NCBI GenBank assembly: GCA_050486185.1
Contig: JBJHCT010000004.1
Location: forward strand, 1 to 59,242
Source of the DNA: Candidatus Saccharimonadota bacterium
Lineage (GTDB): Bacteria; Patescibacteriota; Saccharimonadia; QS-5-54-17
Direction: 5' to 3'
Length of the DNA: 59,242 nucleotides
Shown: positions 1 to 57,062 of the stretch, in pieces
How positions within the stretch are numbered: the first letter of the stretch is position 1
How the letters are laid out: every line of letters begins with the position of its first letter
Translations under genes and position numbers: made by a program
The notes under the pieces: generated by a model
The model's input: only the letters and a program-made list of their open reading frames with translations
Told to the model about the DNA's origin: nothing
Databases searched by the model: none

Positions 1-16
1 TAAAAGGAGTTTTGTT

Positions 17-145
17 ATGGAGAGAAATTCGGATCTAAGCAAAGGAATAACACCAATAGAGGGTTCAGAAGTACCCTATGAAGAGGGCGGAGTTTTAGAA
101 GCCTCCAGATTTGCTAAAGGTGATGGCTGGAGTCCTAATCAGTAA
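17..145 (+). CDS. Candidate RiPP precursor peptide (42 aa: MERNSDLSKGITPIEGSEVPYEEGGVLEASRFAKGDGWSPNQ) with KxxxW / streptide-like C-terminal core
   Basis: Hand-translated; too short for the supplied ORF track. ATG 17-19, TAA 143-145, AAGGAG Shine-Dalgarno at 4-9 with a 7-nt spacer. Same strand and 50 nt upstream of a radical SAM/SPASM gene. The C-terminal AKGDGW equals the first six residues of the streptide core as I remember it (AKGDGWKVM). Confidence 0.55.
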   Translation: MERNSDLSKGITPIEGSEVPYEEGGVLEASRFAKGDGWSPNQ

Positions 146-195
146 GTAGCGAACTCTCTAATTACTTGCCCAGCTTTCAGGGAAAAGAGGTATAA

Positions 196-1662
196 GTGAG
201 TGAACTAGCAAATAGCAAAGAGATATATAGAGATAATCTTAATAGTCCAAATACTGAACAATTTATTTTCAGACATGAATTTTATGGTGGCTTAGTCCAC
301 TCCAGAACAGACGGGCTTAGGTATGAACTTAGCCATGAGTACATTGCTTTTCTTGAAGCTTTAGATACCTCTGGAGACATAGATATAGCTACTTTTGCTG
401 TTAGGTTAGCTATACCAGGCGCTGAGGGTTTTAATCCAGACATAAACGAACTTTCTAGGCGTAATCTTCTGACTGAATCAAGCGGCACCAGAGAACAGAA
501 TAATAATTTAGACTCTGTAACAGAGATTATAGTTTCGAATTATAAAGAAAGTAAGACAAGGGACTATTTGCGAGCTCCTGTCAACTTATCGGTATATCCA
601 CTAATGGCTTGTCAGTTGAGCTGTAAGTTCTGCTATGTTTCGCCAGAAAAGTGGGAGGCTGGATCTAGACCTGTAGAAGATTGGATAGAGGTGATGGTTC
701 AAGCAAGAGATGCCGGCACCCCATTTATATCTTTTCTAGGTGGAGATCCGGCTCTGTACAAAGGTATGCCAAGGCTTGTAAGGGCGTGTGATGAGGTTGG
801 AATTAAGGGTACTATAACTACAAATGGGAACTATATGAGCTCAGAACTTCTTAGTGCCTTAGTTGATACGGACAAGATAACTCCAGTGGTATCTATCCAG
901 TCTCTAGATGATTTTCACGAAAGCATAACGGGTAGACCTGTGAGTGAGCCTATAGATACTCTTGGGAAACTTCATGAAAGTGGGACTAGGTGTAACGTTA
1001 ATATGGTTTATACAGAGCAGTCTTACGATCAAGTTGAAAAACTGGTAGATTTTTGCAATAGAGTTGGCGCAGGCAAGTTTACTATAGGCGTGTTTACAGA
1101 TATAAACGATAGCCATATTAAAGTTCCTAGCTTCTCTGATTACAGGAAGTTGCATGAGCACATATCTAGCTATATAGAAGCTCAAGGATATGATGTGGTT
1201 TTTCAGACTGAAGGTTGTCAGCTATATACTGCATACCCTGAGTTAGACTACAAGGCAAAAACCCACTATCAACAATTGACCTTAGGATGTGATGCTGGTC
1301 AAGGTAGGTGTGAGATTATGCATGATGGCAGTATTCTTGGTTGTGCTTTGCTAGACAAAGATAAATGGGGTGGATTGAGCGTGTTTGAGTATGGGTATCA
1401 GGAAGCTTGGGATAAGAGTCAAGAGCTCTCTAAAATAAGAGAGATTCAGAACAGGGACGAAGCTTGTAATAGCGGGCAATGTGGTTTTAGCGATTTTTGT
1501 AATGGCGGGTGCCCTGCACACAATGAGAGACTTTATGGAGATCCAGAAGCTGGTGGCGATCAAAGATGCGAAATACGTAGCGATATTCTAGCTACGGACG
1601 CCCTTAGTTCCGTTATTAATAACGGTAGAGCAAGGTTGCCTGTGTTAAGTAGAGAGGTTTAG
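196..1662 (+). CDS. Radical SAM/SPASM-domain peptide maturase (candidate KxxxW Lys-Trp cyclase, StrB-like)
   Basis: 488-aa ORF with GTG start and AAGAGG upstream. Radical SAM CX3CX2C motif 'CQLSCKFC'. Cys-rich C-terminal SPASM-type region 'CDAGQGRC..GC..CNSGQCGFSDFCNGGCPAH..RCE'. About 110 aa precede the rSAM core, consistent with a peptide-recognition (RRE-like) domain. The radical SAM/SPASM call is firm; the specific chemistry is inferred from the adjacent peptide. Confidence 0.8.
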   Translation: MSELANSKEIYRDNLNSPNTEQFIFRHEFYGGLVHSRTDGLRYELSHEYIAFLEALDTSGDIDIATFAVRLAIPGAEGFNPDINELSRRNLLTESSGTREQNNNLDSVTEIIVSNYKESKTRDYLRAPVNLSVYPLMACQLSCKFCYVSPEKWEAGSRPVEDWIEVMVQARDAGTPFISFLGGDPALYKGMPRLVRACDEVGIKGTITTNGNYMSSELLSALVDTDKITPVVSIQSLDDFHESITGRPVSEPIDTLGKLHESGTRCNVNMVYTEQSYDQVEKLVDFCNRVGAGKFTIGVFTDINDSHIKVPSFSDYRKLHEHISSYIEAQGYDVVFQTEGCQLYTAYPELDYKAKTHYQQLTLGCDAGQGRCEIMHDGSILGCALLDKDKWGGLSVFEYGYQEAWDKSQELSKIREIQNRDEACNSGQCGFSDFCNGGCPAHNERLYGDPEAGGDQRCEIRSDILATDALSSVINNGRARLPVLSREV

Positions 1663-1669
1663 GTATAAA

Positions 1670-3445
1670 ATGGAGGTACTTAATAATGATAATAACCATG
1701 ATCCAGCAATGAGTGACTATTTAGACATAGAGTCAGTCAGCCTTATCAAAGAATGGGTGGATGATCCCCAATGGGCGCATACCATAATCAGGGATTATCA
1801 ATTAAGCCCAGAACTCAAGAAAGATGTTTTATCTATAGTACAGAGCTTAAGCGAGGGTGGTGTGGACCACGACAGATTAGATAGCACCCTATCACGTTTA
1901 AGAGAGTTATCTAAAGACAGTATTGATTTAGCTACTGCGAGCAAAGACGATGAGGTGGACACATGGAAGAAAGCTCGCATAGCGTATGTGTATTACGGAT
2001 TGGGTGAGGCTATAGTAGAGGGAAGCTCTTTTAGTGCGGACGTCATAGCTGATATCAAGAGCGATCTAGGTGAGAACTACCTCCAAGACTTGCGCAAAGT
2101 AGATCTTCTTACCCCTTCAATACTTACTAAGATATCCAGCGGGGTAACAAAAGAGTCTTTAAGAAGCGAATTGATAGATGTTTTAGATCTAGAGAGTGTT
2201 AAGAAGTATCTAGTGCTAAAGAAATGGCAGGACGATCAGCATATATACCATGAAGACTACCTGCACCCTAGATTTAAAAGTTTACGAACTAGATTTAGCA
2301 AGTATGTAGAACTAAACCATCCCAATCTAAAAGAAGAGAGCGAACGAGATGCTCTGTTTGCTATAGAGAACCTATATTGCAGCCAGCCTCTATCTCTTAC
2401 GGATGTAGCTAAATTCATTAAAGCAGAGGCTATAGGTGTTGATTCTCTAACCTCTTCTTTGGGCGGTAAGGCTGTAGGATTAATTAAACTACTACTATCT
2501 GGAGCAAAAGTACCTAGCACTTTTGTTGTCCCCGTAGGTATAAAGGAAGAAAGTATCGGGGAATATATCCCACCACATGAGGGTGTATGGGCTGTGAGAA
2601 GTTCTGCTACGGTTGAGGACGGCGAAAAGACTGCTTTTGCAGGAATATTTCAGAGCTTTTTAAGAGTGCCTAGTAGTGGATTGCTTGAACACATAAGAAA
2701 AGTTATATTATCTGCGGATTCAAAAAGAGTAGCAGATTATGTCAGGCAGTTTGATACAGACAAGCCAGAGATGGCTGTTTTAATTCAAGAATTTCGACAG
2801 CCAGAATTAGCTGGAGTATGGATGGGGTCTAATAGTGATAGTGGACACCTAGAGTGGGTGAAAGGTGATGGAGAGAAGCTTGTTGCTGGTCAGGTTACTC
2901 CTAACCACGAGAGATGGAGTCTGGGCAAACTTGTTGATGGGAATCCTTTAACAGTGGGTGGAGAAAAGGTATTAGTAGCTAAAGAAGCTATCAAGCTACA
3001 AGGTGCCTTGGGAGTCGATACTGCTGATTTTGAGTTCTGCGTCGTAGATGGCGAGATTATTTGGCTGCAGTTTAGGCCGGTTACTAAAATTATATCCTCT
3101 GAGATGCAAGAAGAGGGTGTAAGAAGCGGAGAGTTTATTAAAGGCATGCCAGCATCTCCTGGTCAATGTGAGGGCGACGGCTTTGTGGCTGATAGTCCAG
3201 AAGATGCGGTAGACATCTCAAAAAACAAGGTGTTGATATGTGATGTTACAGATCCTGACTGGCTGTCTGCAATGATCAAATCTGAGGGTATAGTTACCTC
3301 AGAAGGAGGTGTTCTTTGCCATGCCGCTATAACTGCCAGGGAGTTAGGTAAGCCAGCGGTGGTGGGTGCTGGAGAAGAAGTTCTAACACTTCATGACAAA
3401 AGAGTTAGTGTAGATGGTAGCTCAGGAGTAGTAAAAAGACTGTAA
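1670..3445 (+). CDS. PEP-utilising enzyme (PEP synthase / PPDK / rifampicin-phosphotransferase-like ATP-grasp plus swivel-His phosphotransferase) with an unrecognised ~250-aa N-terminal domain
   Basis: 'GGKAVGLIKLL' and 'VRSSATVEDGEKTAFAGIFQS' match the PEP/pyruvate-binding ATP-grasp domain. C-terminal 'TSEGGVLCHAAITARELGKPAVVG' matches the phosphohistidine mobile domain. Starts 7 nt after the rSAM stop, so probably co-transcribed. Confidence 0.75.
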   Translation: MEVLNNDNNHDPAMSDYLDIESVSLIKEWVDDPQWAHTIIRDYQLSPELKKDVLSIVQSLSEGGVDHDRLDSTLSRLRELSKDSIDLATASKDDEVDTWKKARIAYVYYGLGEAIVEGSSFSADVIADIKSDLGENYLQDLRKVDLLTPSILTKISSGVTKESLRSELIDVLDLESVKKYLVLKKWQDDQHIYHEDYLHPRFKSLRTRFSKYVELNHPNLKEESERDALFAIENLYCSQPLSLTDVAKFIKAEAIGVDSLTSSLGGKAVGLIKLLLSGAKVPSTFVVPVGIKEESIGEYIPPHEGVWAVRSSATVEDGEKTAFAGIFQSFLRVPSSGLLEHIRKVILSADSKRVADYVRQFDTDKPEMAVLIQEFRQPELAGVWMGSNSDSGHLEWVKGDGEKLVAGQVTPNHERWSLGKLVDGNPLTVGGEKVLVAKEAIKLQGALGVDTADFEFCVVDGEIIWLQFRPVTKIISSEMQEEGVRSGEFIKGMPASPGQCEGDGFVADSPEDAVDISKNKVLICDVTDPDWLSAMIKSEGIVTSEGGVLCHAAITARELGKPAVVGAGEEVLTLHDKRVSVDGSSGVVKRL

Positions 3446-3616
3446 CTCTATAATCTAATACGAATGTACAAGATGTAAATACTCTGACGAGAGAATTTTA
3501 GCAGTTCACCATAAAGATAAAAACAGAAATAACAACAACATAACAAACCTTATATGACTCTGTTACAATTGCCATTTTCTAATTCATAATTATAATAGTG
3601 AGTCAGAAGGTTATAT

Positions 3617-3691
3617 GGTGCCTGTAGCTTAATGGTAAAGCTCCGCCTTGTGGCGGCGGCGACGAGGGTTCAATTCCCTTCAGGCACCCCA
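3617..3691 (+). tRNA. tRNA-His (anticodon GUG), with encoded G-1 and CCA
   Basis: Cloverleaf folded by hand. Extra 5' G at 3617, acceptor gtgcctg/caggcac, anticodon stem ccgcc/ggcgg with loop ttGTGgc, T-loop ttcaatt, 3' CCA. Confidence 0.9.
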
Positions 3692-5931: not shown

Positions 5932-6007
5932 GCCCCGGTAGCTCAGTGAATAGAGCGTCTGGTTTCGGCCCAGAAGGTCGTAGGTTTGAATCCTACCCGG
6001 GGTGCCA
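5932..6007 (+). tRNA. tRNA-Arg (anticodon UCG)
   Basis: Acceptor gccccgg/ccggggt (G1:U72), anticodon stem tctgg/ccaga with loop ttTCGgc, T-arm gtagg-tttgaat-cctac, CCA encoded. Confidence 0.9.
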
Positions 6008-6053
6008 ATTTTTACTATTTATGGTATAAATCTATCTGTTCATTAAAACTTCC

Positions 6054-6130
6054 GGGCCTGTAGCTCAGTTGGTTAGAGCAGCGGCCTCTTAAGCCGCGTG
6101 TCGTGGGTTCGAATCCCACCAGGCCCTCCA
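6054..6130 (+). tRNA. tRNA-Lys (anticodon CUU)
   Basis: Acceptor gggcctg/caggccc, anticodon stem gcggc/gccgc with loop ctCTTaa, T-arm gtggg-ttcgaat-cccac, CCA encoded. Confidence 0.9.
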
Positions 6131-6163
6131 TTTGATATTTATAAAGTATAGTATGCTATTTGT

Positions 6164-6967
6164 ATGGAGCAGCCATTTACAGCAGTTGTGGGGGTAGAAA
6201 GTAGAAGCCAGTACTTGGAACTGGCTCAAGAAGTTGCTGATAGAGATCGCTCACTAGGTGAATTAGCGGTCGGAGTTTTGATGAGCGAAAAAACTGGCTT
6301 ACTGGGATTACCTAATCGTCACGGAGAAATTTATCCTGACTTTGATCGACTAGATGCTATAGCTCATGCAGCTGAGAGTCTCGATAATCTTGGCCTACCC
6401 ATCATAATTCACTACAACACAGATAATCCTGATAGGGTGGGAGATCAATTGATTAGAGCTCTAGCTCCGTATCCAAATATAAAATTGGTCCAGGTCAACG
6501 GACTAGACCTAGATCAACTTCGCAAATTACGCAAACTCAAAGAATCTAAAGACATTTCAATTATTATGCAAGTTAATGCTCAGCTATTAGAGTCTCATAC
6601 CCCGAGTGAGTTAACTCAAGCTATAACTAGGTTCGATGAGGAGGTAGTGAGTTATGCTTGGCTAGATGGTTCTGGAGGCTTAGGTAAAAAGCTAGATTGG
6701 GAGAAGCTAGAACCATTCGTAAAAGAATTGCAAGGGGTCGGCATAGGCGTAGGTATAGCTGGTGGTTTGAACCCGGATAACTTAGAAGAAATGCTACCTG
6801 ATATACTAGATAGTTATACAGAAATAAGCTGGGATGCTCAGAGCGGCGTGATGGATACGATCGATAGAGGGATACAGAGATTTGATACTAATAAAGCAAA
6901 GAACTTCTTGGTTAAATCTATGCAACTAAGACAACAAATTGCAGCTAGAGATGCCGATGCTGCTTAA
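6164..6967 (+). CDS. Phosphoribosylanthranilate isomerase (TrpF)-like TIM-barrel protein
   Basis: 'LVQVNG', 'LDGSGGLGKKLDWEKL', 'IAGGLNPDNL' and 'SWDAQSGV' follow the order of the PRAI signature blocks (LHG / D..GGtGk.fdW / lAGGl.p.Nv / vD.sSGvE). No other trp genes in the window. Confidence 0.45.
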   Translation: MEQPFTAVVGVESRSQYLELAQEVADRDRSLGELAVGVLMSEKTGLLGLPNRHGEIYPDFDRLDAIAHAAESLDNLGLPIIIHYNTDNPDRVGDQLIRALAPYPNIKLVQVNGLDLDQLRKLRKLKESKDISIIMQVNAQLLESHTPSELTQAITRFDEEVVSYAWLDGSGGLGKKLDWEKLEPFVKELQGVGIGVGIAGGLNPDNLEEMLPDILDSYTEISWDAQSGVMDTIDRGIQRFDTNKAKNFLVKSMQLRQQIAARDADAA

Positions 6968-7760
6968 AGGAAGTGAAATCGCCGGTTATATCAAGGTTGC
7001 TCAAGCACAAACTGTGCGTAGTTTTCAGTATACCGGCAAGCAACCACAGCTAGCTATCATAAACTGTGGCGATAGAGTAGTAAGTAGTAAGTATATAGAG
7101 CTAAAACAGCAGTACGGAGAGGATATAGGGGTTGGGGTGAGTAAGTATGATGTTGAGCCTAATGATCTTATTAAGCAAATTGAAAAACTTAATAAAGATC
7201 CTGAAACTCACGGTATTATAGTCCAGCTACCACTACTAGAAGGGATAGATACAGACAAGATTCTAGATAGTATCGACCCGCAAAAGGATGTCGATGGATT
7301 GGGCGATAACTCTGTTTTTGACCCGGCTACACCCACGGCTATATTGTGGTTGTTGGCAGGATATAATATTGATTTAGAGGGTAAAGAGATAGGGGTGGTT
7401 GGACTTGGTAGATTGGTAGGTGCATCGCTAGTAAAACTTCTTGAGAGTTCAGGACACAAACCCATAGTTTGTGATGAGGATAGTGGTAACTTAGAAGAAT
7501 TGATGGAAACTTGCGATATAGTGATTACCGCTACCGGTCAACCAAAACTAATTACCAACAAACTAATTAGACCTAATCAAGTAATTATCGATGCCGGTAC
7601 TTCTAATGATAACGGTAGTTTAGTGGGTGATGTCGATCCATCTACTTATGAGAGAAATGATATTAAAATCAGCCCAGTACCTGGTGGTGTTGGGCCTCTA
7701 ACAGTTTGCGCTTTATTTGCTAATGTAGTTGAGGCTTTTAAGACTCTAACGCTTGAGTAA
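6951..7760 (+). CDS. folD: Bifunctional methylenetetrahydrofolate dehydrogenase / methenyl-THF cyclohydrolase
   Basis: 'HGIIVQLPL', 'DPQKDVDGL', 'PATPTAILWLL', 'VVGLGRLVG' and 'PVPGGVGPLTV' motifs. Start is ambiguous (ATG at 6939, 6951 or 6957) and overlaps the upstream gene. The 3' end overlaps the convergent response-regulator gene by 23 nt. Confidence 0.85.
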   Translation: MPMLLKGSEIAGYIKVAQAQTVRSFQYTGKQPQLAIINCGDRVVSSKYIELKQQYGEDIGVGVSKYDVEPNDLIKQIEKLNKDPETHGIIVQLPLLEGIDTDKILDSIDPQKDVDGLGDNSVFDPATPTAILWLLAGYNIDLEGKEIGVVGLGRLVGASLVKLLESSGHKPIVCDEDSGNLEELMETCDIVITATGQPKLITNKLIRPNQVIIDAGTSNDNGSLVGDVDPSTYERNDIKISPVPGGVGPLTVCALFANVVEAFKTLTLE

Positions 7761-8112
7761 CTCTTTCAGCTACCTGTTTAGGTGTAAGATCGGCTTTAAC
7801 TATGAATGAGTCAACACTTAAGTCTTTAAGATTAGCTGGAGCTTCAGACTCCCCCATATTGGTTAGAATAATAACTTTAATGTTTTTACCCCAATCTTCT
7901 TTGCGCATAATCTCTAACATCTCAGCGCCACCCATAATTGGCATCATCAAATCAAGTAGTACTAGGTCTGGCTGAAAGTCTTTAACAACCTCTAGTCCTT
8001 GCTGTCCATCACTGGCATAAGCCACATCAAACCCCTCGGCTTCGAATTTCATCCGATACATCTGGACGATTGCTAGATCGTCTTCTATGAGGACTATCTT
8101 TGCTTTAGCCAT
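7738..8112 (-). CDS. Receiver-only (CheY-like) response regulator
   Basis: 'IVLIEDD', 'DLVLLDLMMP' (phospho-acceptor Asp), 'VIILTN' and 'KA' blocks. About 124 aa with no output domain. Start taken at MAKAKI. Confidence 0.85.
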   Translation of the reverse strand: MAKAKIVLIEDDLAIVQMYRMKFEAEGFDVAYASDGQQGLEVVKDFQPDLVLLDLMMPIMGGAEMLEIMRKEDWGKNIKVIILTNMGESEAPANLKDLSVDSFIVKADLTPKQVAERVTQALES

Positions 8113-8143
8113 AAATACCACTTGTTTATAGTTACTATTTGCT

Positions 8144-8158
8144 ATACTGTAACAGTAT
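8144..8158. promoter_or_regulatory. Perfect 7-1-7 palindrome ATACTGT-a-ACAGTAT in the divergent intergenic region
   Basis: Read directly. Lies 32 nt upstream of the response-regulator start and 127 nt upstream of the GNAT-ThiF gene, in a very AT-rich spacer. Confidence 0.3.
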
Positions 8159-8284
8159 TAATAATAAAGCAAATAAAGCATAAAGCCAATAAAAATAAAA
8201 ATAATAAACAGTCGTACACAGCTACACGGTATTTACATATAATAAAAAATATGTTATAAATATAAATAATTTAAACCTAATCAT

Positions 8285-9940
8285 ATGGAGAAGCGTATGG
8301 TAGCCCATAAAAGCTCACTAGAGATTTCTAGCCCAGCCAGACCCAACCTATCACCTCAACTATCTGACTCTCAAGAAGTTCTAGGTTCTCTGGAAAGAGA
8401 CTTCGAATTAGAGGAGTCTAGATTTAGACTCAATATTAATCCTGATAATGAGATCATGACGAAGGCCTTTAAGCTTAGGGCCGATGTTTATGGTAAGGAA
8501 ATGGGGTTTTTGGACCCAGATAAAATCGACCAAGAAGAAGGTATTGAGACGGATATATATGATAAGTATTCTACCCACATCGTAGTAGAAGATGATAGTG
8601 GTAGTGTTGTCGGTAATATGAGGCTTATACATGAAAGCGAAGTTGACGTTCTGCCTGTTGGGCACTTCTTTAATATATTTGTTCCCGAAGGGTCAGTTGA
8701 GGCTTCTAGATACATATCTAGAACTAAGGATCCCAAGGATCAAAGAGCGATATCTATTGCTTTAATTAGAGCCGGCACAGAACAGGCTATAGATGCAGAT
8801 GCACCTTACATATATATGACCATAGAAAGGGATCTTTACGAGATGTTTATAAATATGGGCATACCGTTAGAAGTTGTAGATGACCCTAAATTTATAAAAG
8901 AGTACAATACTACTAATATGGCTTGCAGAGTCAACCCTAGACGTGTTGCAGCTGGAATATTAGAGGCTGACACATTACTGAAACCAAGTCGTAAAGGAAC
9001 TCTAAGGACTAGAAGGACTAAACTTTCCCCATTTTTCTACAACTCTAGCTTGAGTGATATAGCTAGCGGGTTTAGTAAGTCTGATTTAGAGGCGAGAATG
9101 AGACCGTTTGAGCGCAATCTAGGTTTTCTTTCTAAAGAGGATCAAGAAAAAATAATGAGCTCTAGAGTTTCTATAGCTGGTACTGGTGGTGATGGTGGTA
9201 TGCTTGCTTTGCAACTTGCTAGGTTGGGTGTTGGTAGTTTTAAGCTAGCAGACCCAGAAGTATTTGAATTAGAGAATTTAAATCGCCAAGCAGCATCTAC
9301 ATATAAGACTATAGGCAGAAATAAAGCTGAAGTTATAGCAGAATCTATTTTAGATATTAACCCCTCTGCCAATATCGAGGTTTTCACCGATGGGGTTCAG
9401 ACTGGGAATGTGGAAGAGTTTGTTAGAGGTAGCGACTTAGTAATAGATGAAACAGAGTTTACAGTCCCAGGCATAGGTGTGATGATAGCTAGAGAATCTA
9501 GAAAACAAGGAAGACCAGTCTTGATGGCTCTTAACGTTGGTTATGGTTGTTATGTAACCTCATTTGATCCAGAGGGGTATACTTTTGAAGATATGATGGG
9601 TATAGATAAAAATGCTCCGTTATCAGAAGTAGCAGACCAAGAGATACCTATTGAACGCTGGGTTGGCCATATACCGAGCTATACCGACTTGAGAGTATTA
9701 GAAAAAGTGTCTAATGGCGAAATGACTGCACCATCTGTAGCTCCTGGAGTCGCTATGGCGGCTGGGGTTGCTTCTACTCAGGCTATTTGGCGCATACTTG
9801 GGTATAAAGGTCGCTTTGCTGATGCGACAGCACCAAACTGCCTGTCGTTCGATGCTGTAGACGGTTTTAAGCTAGTTAAAGACACACCAGAAGGATTCAG
9901 ACAATCAATTGGTAGGCTAGCTTTTAATAACTCTCAGTAG
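8285..9940 (+). CDS. Fusion protein: N-terminal autoinducer-synthase/FeeM-like GNAT acyltransferase domain plus C-terminal ThiF/E1-like adenylyltransferase domain
   Basis: The N-terminal 'FKLRADVYGKEMGFLDPDK..EEGIETDIYDKYSTHIVVEDDSGSVVGNMRLI' fits the LuxI / N-acyl-amino-acid-synthase pattern (R..VF..e.gw...g.E.D.yD...H.l..d..g.vvG..Rl). The C-terminal 'IAGTGGDGGMLALQLARLGVGSFKLADPEVFELENLNRQ' is the ThiF/MoeB/E1 nucleotide-binding signature. Confidence 0.6.
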   Translation: MEKRMVAHKSSLEISSPARPNLSPQLSDSQEVLGSLERDFELEESRFRLNINPDNEIMTKAFKLRADVYGKEMGFLDPDKIDQEEGIETDIYDKYSTHIVVEDDSGSVVGNMRLIHESEVDVLPVGHFFNIFVPEGSVEASRYISRTKDPKDQRAISIALIRAGTEQAIDADAPYIYMTIERDLYEMFINMGIPLEVVDDPKFIKEYNTTNMACRVNPRRVAAGILEADTLLKPSRKGTLRTRRTKLSPFFYNSSLSDIASGFSKSDLEARMRPFERNLGFLSKEDQEKIMSSRVSIAGTGGDGGMLALQLARLGVGSFKLADPEVFELENLNRQAASTYKTIGRNKAEVIAESILDINPSANIEVFTDGVQTGNVEEFVRGSDLVIDETEFTVPGIGVMIARESRKQGRPVLMALNVGYGCYVTSFDPEGYTFEDMMGIDKNAPLSEVADQEIPIERWVGHIPSYTDLRVLEKVSNGEMTAPSVAPGVAMAAGVASTQAIWRILGYKGRFADATAPNCLSFDAVDGFKLVKDTPEGFRQSIGRLAFNNSQ

Positions 9941-10012: not shown

Positions 10013-12145
10013 ATGGATTTGCACTTAGGGACTAGTATTCTGCTGTCCTCAATACTATTTTCTATAGGTTTTATAGTTTTAGCCAAGAATTACCGAAATA
10101 AGCTAAATGTTTATTTTTTCGGTTTTTCAACGCTTTTGTCTCTATGGGTTTTGTCTAATTATTATAGTAATGACTTTACCTTATCTCATGAACTAGCTCT
10201 ACTGTCTAACCACTTAGTTCTATTTTTTTCAGCTGCTTCACTAGTTTTTTTGATGAGGTTTACAGCTATTATTGCCTCTCATAATATTAGATATTTAAAT
10301 ACTCTAACGTCCATAGTTATTATCGGCTCTATATTAGGATTAACACCATTGGTTATTGTAGATATATACGAACAGCAAGGTGTTTACGCTATAGAGTTTG
10401 GATTACTTGCATCAATGTATTTTGCCAGCATCTTTACTAGCATACTAGTCTCTTTATGGCAGCTTATAATCGGTTATATTAAAAATGAAGGCATTGTGAG
10501 GGCGAGGATAGTTATTGTCTTGTTGAGCCTAGCTATAATGACAATACTATCTGTTATAACCAATGCCCTGATACCCATATTGACTGGCTCTTTTGCTCTT
10601 ACAAACCTTGGCCCATTTGCAACTATATTTCTAGCACTGGGGATGGCTTATGTAATCGTTAAGCACCGATTGTTTGATATACGTCTAGTTATTGCTAGGT
10701 CTATCGCTTACGTGCTAGTCATAGCAACTCTTGGTTTAACCTACGGACTAATAGTCTTCAATATAGTCGATAGATTCTTCCCCGGCACTCAAACCACTAC
10801 CTTGCAACAAGCCATCTACACTCTACTTGCAGTATTTCTAGCTTTTACTTTCCAGCCCATCAAACGCTTCTTTGATAAACTAACTAACCGAATATTTTAC
10901 CGAGACCGATATGATACCGAAGAGGTACTAAACTCTTTAGGCAAGATATTTGTCAGTAAAAGTAATAGTTTTGAGCTACTAGATGAGAGCCTTCAGGTTA
11001 TCAAAGATACTCTCAAAGTCGAGTTCGGTAGACTGGTAGTTTTGGGTAAAGATGGGATATATAAATCTACCCATATTGGTTCCCATGAAGATATAGAGGT
11101 GAATACCGACAGCCTTAATCGCTTTACTGAGCAGATCAGTATTTTGGATGAAATTGAAAACGACAACGACAACATTAAAGGCGCACTAAAAGATATGAGA
11201 GCTTATGCTCTAGTTAGACTATCGACCCAAGATGGATTAATCGGCTACATGATTTTAGGTTCTAAATCTTCTGGTACTATCTACACCCAGCAAGACATCA
11301 ATATGTTAGAGATACTGTCTCAGGAACTAGCTGTAGCTATCCAAAACGCCAAGAGCTACGAGGAGATACAGGCCTTCTCAGAAACTTTGAAGCAAGAAGT
11401 AGAAGATGCTACTGCTAAGTTGCGTGAGACCAACGAGAGGTTAATTAAACTAGATGAGGCCAAGGATGAGTTTATCTCTATGGCTTCACACCAGCTACGC
11501 ACACCACTTACAACCGTTAAGGGATATTTATCTATGCTACTAGAGGGTGATGCCGGAAAACTATCGAAAAAACAACACGAATTTGTCGACCTATCCTTTG
11601 TCAGCTCTAAACGGATGGTGCACTTAATTGCCGATATGCTTAACGTTTCAAGAATTAGCACTGGTAAACTAATGATCGATAAGACTGAGGTTGATATGTT
11701 GGAATTAGTTCAAGAAGAAGTCGATCAGTTGAAGCGCCAGGCCGAAGCTAGGAATGTGAAATTAATCTTGCATAAACCAAAGAGTAAACTACCTAAACTT
11801 AGCCTAGATGAGACCAAGATCCGTCAGGTAGTTATGAACTTTACCGATAATGCGATCTATTACTCTCCGGAGGGCAAAGTAGATATCTATCTAGAAAATA
11901 AAGACGATTCAGTAGAATTTAGGGTAGTTGATAATGGTATAGGTGTATCTAAAGAGGCCCAAAAAGAGCTATTTAAAAAGTTCTTTAGAGCTGAAAATGC
12001 TAAAACTGTCAGACCAGATGGTACAGGCCTAGGACTCTACATGGCCAAGCAGGTGATAGAGCTACAAGGTGGTGAAATAATCTTTGAAAGCCAGGAAGGC
12101 AAAGGCTCGACATTTGGTTTTCGTTTTAATACCAACGACAACTAG
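10013..12145 (+). CDS. Sensor histidine kinase with polytopic (about 6-7 TM) N-terminal sensor region
   Basis: Multiple hydrophobic helices in the first ~290 aa. H-box 'SHQLRTPLTTVKGY', N-box 'NFTDNAIYYSP', G1 'VVDNGIGV', G2 'GTGLGLYMAK'. Confidence 0.9.
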   Translation: MDLHLGTSILLSSILFSIGFIVLAKNYRNKLNVYFFGFSTLLSLWVLSNYYSNDFTLSHELALLSNHLVLFFSAASLVFLMRFTAIIASHNIRYLNTLTSIVIIGSILGLTPLVIVDIYEQQGVYAIEFGLLASMYFASIFTSILVSLWQLIIGYIKNEGIVRARIVIVLLSLAIMTILSVITNALIPILTGSFALTNLGPFATIFLALGMAYVIVKHRLFDIRLVIARSIAYVLVIATLGLTYGLIVFNIVDRFFPGTQTTTLQQAIYTLLAVFLAFTFQPIKRFFDKLTNRIFYRDRYDTEEVLNSLGKIFVSKSNSFELLDESLQVIKDTLKVEFGRLVVLGKDGIYKSTHIGSHEDIEVNTDSLNRFTEQISILDEIENDNDNIKGALKDMRAYALVRLSTQDGLIGYMILGSKSSGTIYTQQDINMLEILSQELAVAIQNAKSYEEIQAFSETLKQEVEDATAKLRETNERLIKLDEAKDEFISMASHQLRTPLTTVKGYLSMLLEGDAGKLSKKQHEFVDLSFVSSKRMVHLIADMLNVSRISTGKLMIDKTEVDMLELVQEEVDQLKRQAEARNVKLILHKPKSKLPKLSLDETKIRQVVMNFTDNAIYYSPEGKVDIYLENKDDSVEFRVVDNGIGVSKEAQKELFKKFFRAENAKTVRPDGTGLGLYMAKQVIELQGGEIIFESQEGKGSTFGFRFNTNDN

Positions 12146-15351: not shown

Positions 15352-16107
15352 ATGCCCGACCAAGTACAACTAAGAGGTGGTACAGCAAGTGATAATGACA
15401 ACTTCACTGGAGCAGCCAGAGAAGTTACAGTAGATACTACTAATAAGACTCTTAGAGTACATGATGGAGTAACAGCAGGAGGATCTAAACTAGCAGCTTA
15501 TGATCAGTGGGGTAGATTACAAGTAGAAGACCCAGAGAATGATAGTGACGTAGCTAATAAGCAGTGGGTGGAAGGGCATGTTAGCGATTCAGCCAACACT
15601 CAGTGTATTGATGAGGTGCGTTTGGATACATCAGGCTCGTTCGACTTTACGGATATTCCAGCAACCTATAGACACCTTGTAATTAAGTTGGCGGGTCGTA
15701 GTTCAGATAGCGCTACTAACGTTGTAGATGTTAACGTGCGCTTTAATAATGACACTGGAGCAAATTACGATAGGCAAATGCTACGTGGGTTCGGTGCTAA
15801 TGCTACCGCAAGCGAATCGCTAGCACAGACATTCATGCCTTTTACGTGGGCGCTGCCAGGAGCCAATGCGCCTGCTGATGTAGCTGGTAGTGGTATTTTG
15901 CACATTCCCGATTATGCCGATACTACCTTTCATAAGACACTAGTGGCGTCCTTTGTTGGTAAAACTGCAAGCCACGCCACGCTCATACATGAATACGGAG
16001 GCTACTGGAGGTCTACAGCTGCTATTAACCGCATAACTATCACTACTCATGCGGGAACTTTTGCGGCGGGTAGTATTGCTACGTTATATGGTATGAAGGG
16101 AATTTAG
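15352..16107 (+). CDS. Phage tail-fibre-like protein (Mtd/hyaluronidase-type N-terminal fibre motif), paralog 1
   Basis: 'VQLRGGTASDNDNFTGAAREVTVDTTNKTLRVHDGVTAGG' fits the (I/V)QL(R/K)(R/G)GT..n...GE..vdTdt..lk.GDG.T motif at the N-terminus of many tail fibres. 'DVANKQWVEG' matches the fibre 'DA.NK.yVd' motif. Homologous along its length to 56238-57062. Confidence 0.6.
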   Translation: MPDQVQLRGGTASDNDNFTGAAREVTVDTTNKTLRVHDGVTAGGSKLAAYDQWGRLQVEDPENDSDVANKQWVEGHVSDSANTQCIDEVRLDTSGSFDFTDIPATYRHLVIKLAGRSSDSATNVVDVNVRFNNDTGANYDRQMLRGFGANATASESLAQTFMPFTWALPGANAPADVAGSGILHIPDYADTTFHKTLVASFVGKTASHATLIHEYGGYWRSTAAINRITITTHAGTFAAGSIATLYGMKGI

Positions 16108-48208: not shown

Positions 48209-49945
48209 ATGAAACTTCCTAGCCAAGATATACTTGCAAAGATTAGCCAAACTTACAACACAGCCAAGGATTATGTTGGTAAGTCCTATTCCCGCTTTAT
48301 CGATGCCCACCTAAAGAACCGTAGCCTCAGGACGGTAGAGCGATTTGTTTTCAGCTGGGGCTTGGTTTTCGTCCTAGCCATAGGTATAACTTGGTGGCAG
48401 CTGCAGGCACTTGATAGACACTACCTAACTTCGGCACCGGCTGAGGGCGGTCAATATATTGAGGGTATAGTTGGCAGCATCTCTGGTATTAACCCCATAT
48501 TTACAAATGGTCAAGTAGCTGAAGTAGCTAACAGTTTAGTCTTTAGCGGATTGATGAAACCTGATGCTAATAGTGATATGCAGTTGGATTTAGCTAGTGA
48601 TTATGAAGTTAGTAGTAGCGGTACTGTCTACACCTTTACTCTTAAAGAAGATATCAGGTGGCATGATGGCGCTTATCTTGACGCCGAAGACGTAGCTTTT
48701 ACTATAGAGTTGATTCAAAACCCCGACATAGCCTCGCCTTTATATATTGATTGGCGAGACATAGAGGTTGAGGTTGTGGATGAGCTGACTATTAGCTTTC
48801 ATCTACCCAACACATTCGCACCATTTCTATCTCAGCTAGATTTTGGTATCTTACCCAAACATCTATTAGCTGATACTGAACCTGATCGTATACGTATCTC
48901 TTCATTTAACCAGCAACCCATAGGCTCAGGTCCGTTTAGGTTATCTGAAATAACCGACAGTAACCAGCTTAGATTCAACGCCTTTGATAACTACCATTTA
49001 GGCTCGCCAAGTTTAGATAGGTTTACATTAGCTGTGTTTGATAACTCAGAAGAGATGATAGAGGCCTATTTACGCCAAGAACTGGCCGGCATGTCGATGG
49101 GCCACATGGGCGATATACAGACGGTTTCAGATTTGGGCAATACTACCATATACCAGCTAGAAACCGGTGCCCAAGTTTTTGCCTTTTTCAACACTGATGA
49201 GTTAAATCGCAATATTAGGAGAGGTTTAGCTCAAGGTATAGATAATGTAGCTTTAAGGAGTCGCCTAGGTTCAGACTATAGGCGGGCTTATGGACCACTA
49301 TTACCTACACAGCTTGGGTATAAAATTTCGCTACTTGATTACGATTTACAAACTGCCAGATCTAGATTTGAGGCCGGTGGTTTGAGCTATAGTGATGGCA
49401 AGTTATTTGATAAAGGTGAACCATTTAGCATTCGCTTAATTACTCAAGATAGTCATAAATATCCCATAGCTGCTACTAGCTTAAAGGAGCAGTGGGAGGC
49501 TCTAGGAGTGGATGTCGAGTTGGTTGAGCTAGAGGCAGATAGCTTCCGAGAACAACACCTCAGGCCGCGTGATTATGATGTACTGCTATTTGGCGTTGGC
49601 ACTAACAAAGATTCAGATGTCTATGCCTACTGGCACTCTTCAGAAATTAATGATCCTGGCCGTAACCTATCGCTTTATCGATCTGAATTAGCAGACCTCA
49701 ACTTAGAGGATGGACGAACTAGATTAGACCTTGATTTACGGGCCGCTAAGTATGAGGCTTTTCAGGATCAGTGGCGCACAGACGCACCAGCTCTACCGCT
49801 ATATAGGCTGCATTCATACTACGTAGTTCGTAACGAAGTAGCAGGACTAGATGTTAATAATATTATCAGCCCCCTCGATAGACTTCATAATGTTGATGAC
49901 TGGACTATCAATACTCAACCAACACTACGTAGACTAGTTGAGTAA
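48209..49945 (+). CDS. ABC transporter substrate-binding protein, family 5 (peptide/nickel type), TM-anchored
   Basis: N-terminal anchor. 'Y.F.LKEDIRWHDG..l.AEDV.FT' and 'GSGPFRL' blocks typical of SBP_bac_5. Confidence 0.8.
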   Translation: MKLPSQDILAKISQTYNTAKDYVGKSYSRFIDAHLKNRSLRTVERFVFSWGLVFVLAIGITWWQLQALDRHYLTSAPAEGGQYIEGIVGSISGINPIFTNGQVAEVANSLVFSGLMKPDANSDMQLDLASDYEVSSSGTVYTFTLKEDIRWHDGAYLDAEDVAFTIELIQNPDIASPLYIDWRDIEVEVVDELTISFHLPNTFAPFLSQLDFGILPKHLLADTEPDRIRISSFNQQPIGSGPFRLSEITDSNQLRFNAFDNYHLGSPSLDRFTLAVFDNSEEMIEAYLRQELAGMSMGHMGDIQTVSDLGNTTIYQLETGAQVFAFFNTDELNRNIRRGLAQGIDNVALRSRLGSDYRRAYGPLLPTQLGYKISLLDYDLQTARSRFEAGGLSYSDGKLFDKGEPFSIRLITQDSHKYPIAATSLKEQWEALGVDVELVELEADSFREQHLRPRDYDVLLFGVGTNKDSDVYAYWHSSEINDPGRNLSLYRSELADLNLEDGRTRLDLDLRAAKYEAFQDQWRTDAPALPLYRLHSYYVVRNEVAGLDVNNIISPLDRLHNVDDWTINTQPTLRRLVE

Positions 49946-52828: not shown

Positions 52829-53596
52829 TTAGTATTTTATACAGTATAAAAGAGCTACGTTCCGAGGTCGTGCTTCGCTCCCACCATCAGGATTTGTGGT
52901 TATATCATGACTATGGTTTGCTGTTGAATCTACTGATACTGTGTGATTGTGATCGCCGGAAGATGATATCTGGCCAGACATCCAGACTAAACCAAAATGA
53001 TCTAATTGACGTGCCCATGTAGGGGTATTGCCGGAATAAGTCCCTGTTCCTAAGCGGTTGCTATGAGAGTGGGAACCTGTTGTATTTGTTGACGCGCTAT
53101 GAGTGTGTTCTCCACTAGATTGAGTCGATCCACCATGAGAGTGTTCTTTGTTAAGGTTTTCTTGGGTTGAACCTATACTCCTATTAGTATCTATTCCTCT
53201 ACCATCATCCCATCCTCTAATAAATTCTGCGCGTAAATCAGGAACGTTGAATGTTGTAGACCCATCACCTTCGCCGTAAGCTACTCCTATGGCTGTAAAT
53301 AGATCAGAATATGTTGTGCGAGATACAGCTTCACCATTACATTTCAACCAACCGCTTGGTGGCGTATTCATAGCAAATGCTTGTACTGCTCCCGCAGGTA
53401 ATCCGGATCCTCTAGCAGACAACTCAACGATAGCTTGCTGCACATTATCTGCTTCCAGATCCGAGCCTTGGTTGTTAAAAGGCATACTGCTGAGGTTAGC
53501 TTTAGTTAAATCTATAGTTCCATTGGAGTTTAATACTATACTCGGCTCATTTGAGTCTGGATGTTGAATTCTGCTAACCCTTATTACAGACGACAT
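52829..53596 (-). CDS. Phage tail-collar domain protein with His-rich (HxHxx) repeats (MdpB-like)
   Basis: 'GWLKCNGEAVSRTTYSDLFTAIGVAYGEGDGSTTFNVPDLRAEFIRG' matches the tail-collar fibre domain. Repeats EHSHGG / EHTHSA / SHSHSN / DHNHTV / NHSHDI follow, and the C-terminal 'EARPRNVALLYCIKY' is typical of the family. Start ATG at 53596 (the TTG at 53599 is in the track). Confidence 0.75.
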   Translation of the reverse strand: MSSVIRVSRIQHPDSNEPSIVLNSNGTIDLTKANLSSMPFNNQGSDLEADNVQQAIVELSARGSGLPAGAVQAFAMNTPPSGWLKCNGEAVSRTTYSDLFTAIGVAYGEGDGSTTFNVPDLRAEFIRGWDDGRGIDTNRSIGSTQENLNKEHSHGGSTQSSGEHTHSASTNTTGSHSHSNRLGTGTYSGNTPTWARQLDHFGLVWMSGQISSSGDHNHTVSVDSTANHSHDITTNPDGGSEARPRNVALLYCIKY

Positions 53597-53624
53597 CAAT
53601 AAGCCTTTCTACCTAATAAAATTT

Positions 53625-56237: not shown

Positions 56238-57062
56238 ATGCCCGACCAAGTACAACTAAGAGGTGGAAGTAGCGCAGATAACGATAACTTCACAGGAGCA
56301 CAACGTGAAGTTACAGTAGATACTACCAACAAGACTCTTAGAGTACATGATGGAGTAACAGCTGGTGGACACCAGCTAGTTCAAGGAACAGCTAGCACAA
56401 GTTCAGATGCTGATACTATCATCCAACGTGATGAATGGGGACGTGCTCAAGTAGCAGATCCAGTCAATGCTACTGATGTAGCGAATAAGCAATGGGTAGA
56501 GGGGCAAATTGGTGGGTCGGTGGCGATGGAGCCACTCGGCGAACCTGTAATCGTCGGTGCTGCAGGCGCATCTTCTATTGAATGGGATGCTATCACACAG
56601 GACTTCGATCATTTAAGAGTTGTGTTTGTTGGTCGCTCTAACCGAGACAGTACTTCTGCAGATGCTACTATCGTACGTCTCAACGGCGACGATGGAACCA
56701 ACTATGACCGAATACTAACGCGAGCCACAGGTACCAGCACCACAACAGCAACTTCAAATGGGTCTAATAATTTATTTGGATCAAGTACCTCTATTCCGTC
56801 GGCACTGAATCCAGCTAATCTTGCTTCACAGCAGACGTTTGATTTCTATGACTACTCACGTACGGCATGGGAGAAGCGAGGATCCGCTAGATCTGGCTTC
56901 AAGAACGGAACTGGCGCCTCTAACGTAATAATGGAACACGTCGAAGGGTACTGGCGCAATACTGCCGCTATAACAAGGATTACGCTTTCGGTAGCTGTGG
57001 GTACTGGGTTTGTAGAAAATACCTATGCTCAACTTTACGGTATACGAGGAGGTACAGTATGA
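56238..57062 (+). CDS. Phage tail-fibre-like protein (Mtd/hyaluronidase-type N-terminal fibre motif), paralog 2
   Basis: 'MPDQVQLRGGSSADNDNFTGAQREVTVDTTNKTLRVHDGVTAGG' is 40/44 identical to the N-terminus of 15352-16107. The two also share 'WGR.QV.DP.N..DVANKQWVEG', 'GRS...S', 'R.N.D.G.NYDR' and C-terminal 'GYWR.TAAI.RIT' blocks. Confidence 0.6.
   Translation: MPDQVQLRGGSSADNDNFTGAQREVTVDTTNKTLRVHDGVTAGGHQLVQGTASTSSDADTIIQRDEWGRAQVADPVNATDVANKQWVEGQIGGSVAMEPLGEPVIVGAAGASSIEWDAITQDFDHLRVVFVGRSNRDSTSADATIVRLNGDDGTNYDRILTRATGTSTTTATSNGSNNLFGSSTSIPSALNPANLASQQTFDFYDYSRTAWEKRGSARSGFKNGTGASNVIMEHVEGYWRNTAAITRITLSVAVGTGFVENTYAQLYGIRGGTV

Follow-up and report, generated by a model that had tools for sequence, protein, structure and literature searches.

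Why does a cassette that appears to make a streptide-like peptide carry a phosphotransferase where an exporter would be expected? The question is raised by the start of a 59,242-nt stretch of DNA (assembly GCA_050486185.1, contig JBJHCT010000004.1, positions 1-59,242, forward strand), which as a whole is called the window below. Its host belongs to Candidatus Saccharimonadales, an order within the candidate phylum Candidatus Saccharimonadota of the candidate phyla radiation (CPR), and the small genome supposed in an initial annotation of the sequence fits this lineage. Three open reading frames (ORFs) with the same direction lie at 17-145 (42 aa, start codon ATG), 196-1662 (488 aa, GTG), and 1670-3445 (591 aa, ATG), and occupy 3.4 kb together. 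They encode a precursor peptide, a radical S-adenosylmethionine (SAM) enzyme with a SPASM domain, and a dikinase-type phosphotransferase, here called gene 3. The ORFs are separated by 50 and 7 nt, and purine-rich motifs resembling ribosome-binding sites (AAAGGAG, AAGAGG, and GAGAGG) precede their starts. The positions, gaps, common direction, and ribosome-binding sites given in the initial annotation were all borne out when the window was re-examined. We conclude that the cassette is probably a three-gene operon of the streptide class for a peptide made by ribosomes and modified after translation (RiPP), in which Lys34 would be cross-linked to Trp38 and a phosphoryl group would then be transferred to the peptide by a histidine relay. 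The assignment of the precursor-maturase pair to the streptide class is strongly supported by homology.

Precursor Peptide and Radical SAM Maturase

The 42-aa precursor encoded on the forward strand at 17-145 has the sequence MERNSDLSKGITPIEGSEVPYEEGGVLEASRFAKGDGWSPNQ and ends in VLEASRFAKGDGWSPNQ, and translation confirmed both this end and the earlier numbering of Lys34 and Trp38. The core motif K34-G-D-G-W38 (116-130) is the predicted site of the Lys-Trp cross-link, as judged from translation and conservation. In NCBIfam, the precursor matched TIGR04079 ('KxxxW-cyclized peptide pheromone') with 49.3 bits against a curated cutoff of 35 (E = 3.1e-13). Compared with the annotated pheromone of Streptococcus gallolyticus (MSKELEKVLEASAMAKGDGWK), it was identical at 11 of 13 positions over VLEAS..AKGDGW. 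Moreover, the leader contains the clade-conserved motif Y-x-x-G-G-V-L-E-A-S, and F32, K34, G35, D36, and W38 were invariant in an alignment of 13 diverse precursors.

Relatives were collected by a search of 5.8 billion proteins, and scans of genomes and metagenomes added 37 loci. Each of these scans used one restrictive peptide pattern, CNGGCPA, so that streptococcal-type enzymes and probably many others were missed, and the locus counts given here are lower bounds. Only about a dozen relatives of the radical SAM enzyme in the protein search had 40-56% identity, and the next group stood at 27-31%. At every locus with a full-length relative, a peptide of the pattern [HKR..]-F-[ASK]-K-G-D-[GK]-W was found immediately upstream, with KGKQW in locus L023. 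A profile built from these precursors retrieved 37 further peptides. The precursor of locus L049 already carries the NCBI label 'KxxxW-cyclized peptide pheromone [Patescibacteria group bacterium]'.

These data bear on the alternative that no RiPP is made at all, in which the ORF at 17-145 is spurious and the radical SAM protein is a SPASM enzyme of the cofactor or sulfatase type. Generic points in its favour are that chance readily produces short ORFs and that the enzyme matched the SPASM Pfam model weakly (13.6 bits). However, chance is far exceeded, because the precursor passes the curated model with E = 3e-13 and an equivalent peptide lies upstream of each homologous radical SAM gene that was fetched. 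A lack of conservation of the short ORF beside homologs had been set beforehand as a possible point of refutation; the ORF was conserved at every locus examined, and the RiPP reading therefore stands. Together with the family assignment of the enzyme described next, this leaves the alternative effectively refuted.

The product of 196-1662 (forward strand) was compared by profile and structure with KxxxW maturases and other SPASM families, and the KxxxW/SuiB type was the best by about 150 bits. The top family was TIGR04080 ('KxxxW cyclic peptide radical SAM maturase'), with 225.7 bits and a match that spans positions 6-438 of the 440 in the profile. The next models, for heme b synthase, GDL maturase, NirJ2, SkfB, PqqE, and WgkB, reached at most 69 bits, a gap of about 157 bits. 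The sulfatase, PQQ, mycofactocin, and heme models each stayed within the same limit, and WgkB-type models gave 61 bits. Among solved structures, SuiB (5V1Q) matched with 208 bits (E = 2e-60), followed by SkfB with 62 and PqqE with 42 bits. The grouping with sulfatase-maturase or cofactor-type SPASM enzymes, which had been considered a second possible refutation, was thus not seen.

The alignment with SuiB ran from end to end, with residues 20-442 against SuiB 25-442, at about 30% identity. Within it, residues 20-120 corresponded to SuiB 25-120, the RiPP recognition element (RRE) domain, and to the N-terminal part of the TIGR04080 profile. The radical SAM domain (PF04055) carries the cluster motif C139-QLS-C143-KF-C146 (610-633). 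The auxiliary cluster ligands (1216-1569) are C341 in the linker, C365-X12-G378-X4-C383, C424-X4-C429-X5-C435-X3-C439, and C458. All of these, 3 radical SAM and 8 auxiliary cysteines, were invariant in 17 of 17 homologs and aligned with the cysteines of SuiB. With the SPASM motif as defined in PMC6231123 and the linker cysteine as described in PMC5491770, the auxiliary ligands match the fully ligated clusters, two each, of SuiB and KW_cyclase (PMC6231123, PMC5491770). The CX3CX2C motif and SPASM-type cysteine cluster reported before were therefore confirmed, the latter as a complete set.

The known streptide system of Streptococcus thermophilus (StrA/StrB/StrC, with the orthologous Sui and Aga systems) has the same short precursor, VLE[AS]S leader end, KGDGW core, and order of precursor and radical SAM gene. 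It also has the same kind of adjacent radical SAM/SPASM maturase with all cluster cysteines, including the one in the linker, and with an RRE domain whose counterpart in the window enzyme is putative (PMC9389541, PMC6231123). In contrast, the window cassette has a dikinase-type third gene, neither StrC nor an shp/rgg module was seen in the window, the leader is longer and acidic with its Y-x-x-G-G motif, and the host belongs to Saccharimonadales and not to Bacillota. The streptide-class (KxxxW) system proposed in the initial annotation is supported by the TIGR04079 match of the precursor, the TIGR04080/SuiB match of the maturase, and the conserved KGDGW-type peptide.

Domain Architecture of Gene 3

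Gene 3 (1670-3445, forward strand) encodes a protein of 591 aa in which Pfam, AlphaFold2, and Foldseek resolved a helical, an ATP-grasp, and a swivelling phosphohistidine domain. The N-terminal all-alpha domain (about residues 1-255; 1670-2434), with the motif YLVLKKWQDDQH at 2207-2242, is the putative site of phosphoryl-acceptor binding. The ATP-grasp nucleotide-binding domain (2435-3109) contains GGKAVGL at residues 265-271, VRSSA at 309, and FRPVT at 468. In the swivelling PEP-utilizers domain (3137-3442), His551 lies in GGVLC-H-AAITARE, with its codon at 3320-3322. Pfam matched residues 304-413 to PF01326, the ATP-grasp domain by which dikinases bind AMP/ATP, and residues 517-586 to PF00391, the mobile His domain of the PEP-utilizers.

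The initial annotation had described swivel-His and phosphoenolpyruvate (PEP)/pyruvate-binding domains. The former was found, while the latter was not, since PF01326 binds AMP/ATP and no PEP/pyruvate TIM barrel (no PF02896-type Pfam match) is present in the protein, which ends with the swivel domain at residue 591. The PEP synthase model of NCBIfam gave 141 bits against a cutoff of 598. Without the TIM barrel and with this score, gene 3 cannot make PEP and is not a PEP synthase. The rifampin phosphotransferase (RPH) model NF041857 gave 102 bits against a cutoff of 999, PigC and RedH gave 95 and 77 bits against cutoffs of 1300 and 1350, and the pyruvate phosphate dikinase (PPDK) score was also far below its cutoff.

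By sequence, the best PDB matches were the Listeria rifampin phosphotransferases 5FBS and 5HV1. The full-length AlphaFold2 model, for which 61 homologs were used, had a pLDDT of 90.2 and a pTM of 0.88, and its best Foldseek matches were PPDK 1KBL and RPH 5HV3/5HV1 (E ~1e-13). Across the 61 sequences, K267, R310, E316, D317, Q373, E455, Q467, and R469 of the ATP-grasp domain and His551 were invariant, as was a polar cluster in the N-terminal domain (E113, E117, D145, S150, Y180, K184, Q187, and D188). Judged from these residues and the model, gene 3 looks catalytically competent. In RPH and the dikinases, ATP loads the catalytic histidine, and the phosphoryl group is then passed to an acceptor. 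By analogy, gene 3 should use ATP to load His551 and transfer the group to an acceptor bound by the N-terminal domain.

Gene 3 resembles RPH (5FBS, 5HV1), which carries phosphate from ATP via phosphohistidine to a non-pyruvate acceptor, in its ATP-grasp domain, in the swivelling His domain at its C-terminus, and in the lack of a PEP/pyruvate TIM barrel. However, in RPH the ATP-grasp domain is followed by the rifampin-binding domain and then by the His domain, whereas the order in gene 3 is helical, ATP-grasp, His, and the helical domain has no detectable similarity to RPH. PEP synthase and PPDK share with gene 3 the PF01326 and PF00391 domains with the conserved catalytic histidine and, through 1KBL, the fold, but differ in their TIM barrel. 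The prodigiosin ligases PigC and RedH also use ATP-grasp and swivel-His modules in a natural-product pathway. They are dikinase-like enzymes in which phosphorylation activates a carbonyl to drive condensation. These ligases are about 880 aa long with other substrate domains, and gene 3 showed no evidence of condensation chemistry.

The N-terminal domain had no match in Pfam, NCBIfam, PADLOC, or PHROG. Modelled alone (AlphaFold2, pLDDT 88.5) and compared with the PDB, RPH included, it gave a best E of 0.54 and a TM of at most 0.23. Searched with its profile, 1.84 billion representatives yielded no more than 108 clusters; almost all of these were fragments or had the domain at the N-terminus of 545-640-aa proteins, in this architecture only. 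Such a tiny family fits a specialised substrate like a peptide, and not a common metabolite. A defence-system reading of gene 3 was rejected: PADLOC gave no match for gene 3 or the protein P0096, and the sole PHROG match was a generic kinase swivel domain.

Since no solved structures are closer to it in sequence than those of the rifampin phosphotransferases, gene 3 might instead serve self-protection. An RPH-like phosphorylation would then keep the mature peptide inert in its producer, and orphan copies elsewhere would be resistance genes. The N-terminal domain, however, is structurally unlike the rifampin-binding domain, and the PADLOC result gives no support. In addition, streptide, the first quorum-sensing-linked radical SAM RiPP, has an uncharacterised biological function and no known antimicrobial one (PMC13361665). 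The genomic evidence on this alternative is taken up with the stand-alone gene 3 homologs below.

Linkage of Gene 3 to the Precursor and Maturase

By tblastn, a full-length gene 3 homolog (35-46% identity) lies directly 3' of the radical SAM gene in at least about 16 distinct loci. L002, L043, L044, and L045/46/49/50 form the close clade, while in L007, L008/15, L011, L012, L013/51, L016/17, L018-20/27, L021, L023 (partial), L024, and L026 the radical SAM enzyme is only 26-32% identical to that of the window; over all gene 3-linked loci its identity spans 26-56%. The stop codon of the radical SAM gene and the start codon of gene 3 often overlap in these relatives. The loci come from Patescibacteria, and many of the distant ones from human-gut 'Tenericutes'/Bacilli metagenome-assembled genomes (MAGs), at least two phyla overall. 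The nearest cassette relatives with a named source were Patescibacteria MAGs (L049). The three-gene arrangement, for which a survey of related genomes had been suggested, is thus a recurrent one. The initial annotation had called the third gene unusual in the place of an exporter or protease; the absence of an exporter held, but the arrangement is no oddity of this locus.

A rough neighbour-joining distance tree of the radical SAM enzymes with midpoint rooting, which was not relied on for the direction of evolution, placed the gene 3-linked enzymes on three deep branches, and the exporter type (SuiB with L010) and the GNAT type on single branches. This gives a hint that the form with the phosphotransferase arose early and is widespread.

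Published streptococcal, lactococcal, and Pseudomonas homologs are accompanied by a protease and an ABC transporter (PMC5491770), as with StrC (PMC9389541). No exporter was found beside the cassette in the gene 3-type loci, and neither a StrC-like peptidase/transporter nor a protease with an ABC transporter was found across the 59-kb window. The sole peptide-transport-related gene noticed in the window encodes an OppA-like family 5 solute-binding protein (48209-49945, forward strand), with no permease or ATPase genes seen beside it. Furthermore, no Rgg-type regulator or shp/rgg module was found downstream of the cassette or elsewhere in the window, nor upstream in L002, L045, and L049.

Sister loci without gene 3 share the precursor core and the radical SAM family, with TIGR04080 as the top family (206-380 bits). 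The third-gene position is held by an MFS transporter in L010 (Clostridium zeae) and L025, and by a GNAT acetyltransferase in L003/L006 and L005; in L047 it is empty, with neither a gene 3 homolog nor an exporter beside the radical SAM gene. Precursors of the GNAT type are longer (L003 9243-9794, identical to L006; L005 1241-1594; P0237; P0247), with between one and three cores, and all end in a conserved follower domain, ..NKRPI.EI..EYRFF..; that of L003 has three tandem SEDVFDRAHFAKGDGWKTM repeats. The contig of L005 is labelled Rhizobium anhuiense, and integrase and TIR/nSTAND genes adjoin the locus. The precursor of L047 (2014-2322, identical to L048), which is of the KxxxW type (..EASAFSKGDKW..), has a LysM peptidoglycan-binding domain fused to its C-terminus.

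Other genes flanking the gene 3-linked cassettes vary and are mostly of the housekeeping kind (Ham1, S51 peptidase, Bro-N, LigA, M16 peptidase, HAD, GTPase, and ABC-F). No further conserved partner held up, as NUDIX recurred in two independent contexts only. A NUDIX hydrolase gene lies beside the cassette in L002 (5279-5761) and L051 (5890-6402), and others lie some 500 nt upstream of the precursor in L013, L016-L020, and L027. This recurrence may be chance, or a hint of nucleotide-linked chemistry. In L012 (Bacilli), two gene 3 paralogs of 30 and 35% identity were observed (983-2668 and 5971-8714). The radical SAM ORF of this locus matches only from residue 125 onward, which suggests that the RRE-like part at its N-terminus is absent or has been split from it.

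Proposed Pathway and Its Alternatives

In StrB, SuiB, and AgaB, a bond between Lys C-beta and Trp C7 is formed in KGDGW motifs with strict Lys and Trp specificity and leader dependence (PMC9389541, PMC11851443, PMC5491770). A Lys34-Trp38 macrocycle is therefore predicted for the window peptide. In the first step, the VLEAS-containing leader of the precursor would be bound by the StrB/SuiB-like enzyme, which would reductively cleave SAM, abstract a hydrogen from Lys34, and form a C-C bond to the indole of Trp38. The product would be a K-G-D-G-W macrocycle lighter by 2 Da, with a Lys-C-beta to Trp-C7 bond if the chemistry is that of StrB.

In the second step, His551 of the swivelling domain would be phosphorylated or pyrophosphorylated by the ATP-grasp domain (ATP -> AMP + Pi + His~P). 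The phosphoryl group would next travel with the swivel to an acceptor bound by the helical N-terminal domain that is specific to this family. The likeliest such acceptor is the cross-linked peptide, which would gain 80 Da or become a phosphoryl-activated intermediate. We regard this phosphohistidine relay of the RPH/dikinase type, directed to the peptide, as a nearly even call that leans slightly to the negative. Action on the peptide is suggested because the synteny is deep and tight, the genes appear translationally coupled, the N-terminal domain is rare and confined to a single architecture, and gene 3 takes the exporter's place. As a third point, this variant would have no dedicated peptidase or exporter, the phosphotransferase holding the operon position that the exporter has in StrABC- and MFS-type loci.

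Several observations weigh against this pathway, and the first of them concern the cross-link. The radical SAM enzyme lies below the TIGR04080 equivalog cutoff of 500 bits, as do all of its non-streptococcal relatives (206-380 bits). By the rule of NCBI itself, it is thus a relative of the streptococcal enzymes and not automatically an equivalog. Its SPASM motif also has CX4C where CX2C is canonical. With a score below the cutoff and about 30% identity to SuiB, the regiochemistry of the cross-link could differ from the SuiB type, as far as can be judged from the sequence. There is a precedent in WgkB, a related Lys/Trp-linking enzyme that joins different atoms (PMC11851443). The maturase might accordingly install another modification than the StrB-type bond, through different atoms or a second cross-link, so that the product would be no true analogue of streptide. 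On the other hand, streptococcal precursors have exactly the same KGDGW core and VLEAS leader end, the alignment with SuiB is end to end with all cluster ligands kept, and the WgkB-type models score far lower than TIGR04080. We consider a different modification clearly improbable, and retain the StrB-type macrocycle as the expected product.

The further observations against the pathway concern the acceptor. No hydroxyl acceptor is conserved after Trp, and some gene 3-linked precursors end at Trp. The sole Ser/Cys conserved in the gene 3-linked precursors, at position -4, also occurs in the exporter-type streptococcal precursor. In addition, literature searches gave no precedent of a dikinase-type or PEP-utilizing enzyme in a RiPP pathway. 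Position -4 was considered as the target of gene 3, given that it is Ser or Cys in all gene 3-linked precursors and Ala in three of the five unlinked ones. It was rejected, since VLEAS is equally present in the S. gallolyticus precursor, which is of the exporter type, and L025 and L047 have Ser there without gene 3. Membership in a common leader motif accounts better for the residue. The motif is presumably the 'LESS' motif of SuiA.

Finally, members of the gene 3 family without an adjacent radical SAM gene or precursor occur in L054 and L052/53, with the invariant residues of the N-terminal domain kept. The closest gene 3 homolog (P0039 in L054, 51% identity) has no radical SAM gene or KxxxW peptide within 2.4 kb upstream. 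A member with 32% identity at L052 1658-4800 (identical to L053) has no radical SAM gene nearby, and the genes on its two sides encode an HTH_3 regulator and an MBL-fold hydrolase.

These stand-alone members, the LMW phosphatase and MBL-fold genes beside them, and the lack of a conserved hydroxyl after the core would fit an enzyme that acts on something other than the peptide. This could be a small molecule, a nucleotide-derived compound, or a protein, with co-transcription serving, for example, metabolite supply, removal, or sensing. Neighbours acting on phosphates or nucleotides do recur loosely, namely NUDIX (L002 and the L013/L051 group), Ham1 in L007, and HAD in L008. However, gene 3 is tightly linked to the precursor and maturase genes over about 16 loci, with overlapping codons and a radical SAM identity down to 26%, while the other flanking genes are variable and mostly housekeeping. 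The tiny N-terminal domain family also speaks for a specialised substrate. A non-peptide substrate is therefore judged unlikely.

The same stand-alone members resemble orphan immunity genes, those of L052/53 lying amid AbiEii, NERD helicase, and HsdM genes, which is what the self-protection reading would predict. However, neither the gene 3-type loci nor the window contain an exporter, and a secreted toxin would be left without an export step. Taking this with the dissimilar N-terminal domain, we hold self-protection to be very unlikely, and the transfer of a phosphoryl group to the cross-linked peptide as part of its biosynthesis remains our preferred reading.

Other features were observed around the stand-alone members. 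The MBL-fold hydrolase of L052 has a faint Apyc1-like match, its region also holds a UvrD helicase with the NERD domain, and PADLOC gave no match there. In L054, several copies of the 3' end of a tRNA gene (..ATCCTGCCCGGGGTACCA..) come after that gene, upstream of the gene 3 homolog (about 830-1546), and look like scars of serial integrations. The low-molecular-weight phosphatase (LMWPc) gene of this locus lies directly downstream of the gene 3 homolog.

Genomic Surroundings of the Cassette

Downstream, the cassette is bounded by tRNA-His(GTG) on the forward strand at 3618-3691, a neighbour and no functional part of it. The tRNA had been reported before with a spacer of 170 nt; its identity was confirmed, and the spacer measured 172 nt. 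A good match to a sigma-70-like site at 3569-3596 within this spacer is probably the promoter of tRNA-His. No promoter-like site was found upstream of the first ORF from position 1 of the window, so the cassette promoter would lie beyond that position. By exact-protein look-up, the single other contig with the gene was a 5983-bp Logan contig that begins at about window position 97.

The GC content of the cassette (0.41) lies within the range of 0.38-0.45 across the window, and no skew break was seen. Recent horizontal transfer of the cassette was accordingly unsupported. An integration boundary at tRNA-His was also rejected, as its 3' end is not repeated in the window and the cassette sits 5' of the tRNA. 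The rest of the window is of housekeeping character (aminoacyl-tRNA synthetases, glycolysis, UvrABC, and PcrA), and homologous cassettes elsewhere have unrelated flanks. The MurA protein encoded in the window belongs to a cluster at 90% identity in which the named members come from Candidatus Saccharimonadales MAGs.

Two other features stand out in the window. At 8285-9940 (forward strand), a 551-aa fusion joins an N-terminal autoinducer-synthase/GNAT-like acyltransferase domain (PF00765, PF13444; TIGR03694-like) to a ThiF/E1-like adenylyltransferase domain, and it is directly followed by a PAS histidine kinase (10013-12145, forward strand). This pair is unusual for a CPR genome and is a possible signalling-molecule module. 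In addition, two proteins with an Mtd_N domain (major tropism determinant N-terminal; 15352-16107 and 56238-57062, forward strand) and a phage tail collar protein (52829-53599, reverse strand) lie amid housekeeping genes, and one of the Mtd_N genes has pgk and tpiA as its immediate neighbours. A role at the cell surface or in attachment is conceivable for these proteins, which might alternatively be targets of a diversity-generating retroelement.

Implications for Streptide-Class Systems

The host is less unexpected than the initial annotation had held. The NCBI pipeline already names equivalent precursors in Patescibacteria (a MAG, L049), and the KxxxW class in CPR is not new at the annotation level, so the novelty lies in the phosphotransferase variant. 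Literature searches found no publication on this variant or on KxxxW systems in CPR.

The published picture of streptide is streptococcal, with a precursor, StrB, and an exporter/protease. The roughly 16 loci described here show a second conserved architecture, found in reduced-genome lineages in which each retained gene is likely to matter. We tentatively propose, as a possibility short of an even balance, that gene 3 represents a new class of RiPP-tailoring enzyme whose N-terminal domain binds the Lys-Trp macrocycle, so that the peptide is phosphorylated, or activated by a phosphoryl group for the formation of another bond, and that the cassette belongs to an exporter-less branch of the streptide family. 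If this is true, such a branch would be favoured in reduced-genome bacteria (Patescibacteria and gut Bacilli/'Tenericutes'). If gene 3 does not act on the peptide, its tight linkage to the precursor and maturase would still need an explanation.

To our knowledge, the natural-product chemistry of CPR bacteria is almost unexplored. If gene 3 does act on the peptide, RiPP biosynthesis would gain both a new class of enzyme and a new modification. This would also offer a handle on the role of streptide-like peptides where the Rgg/SHP circuitry is absent, and provide a compact, testable three-gene system from a CPR bacterium.

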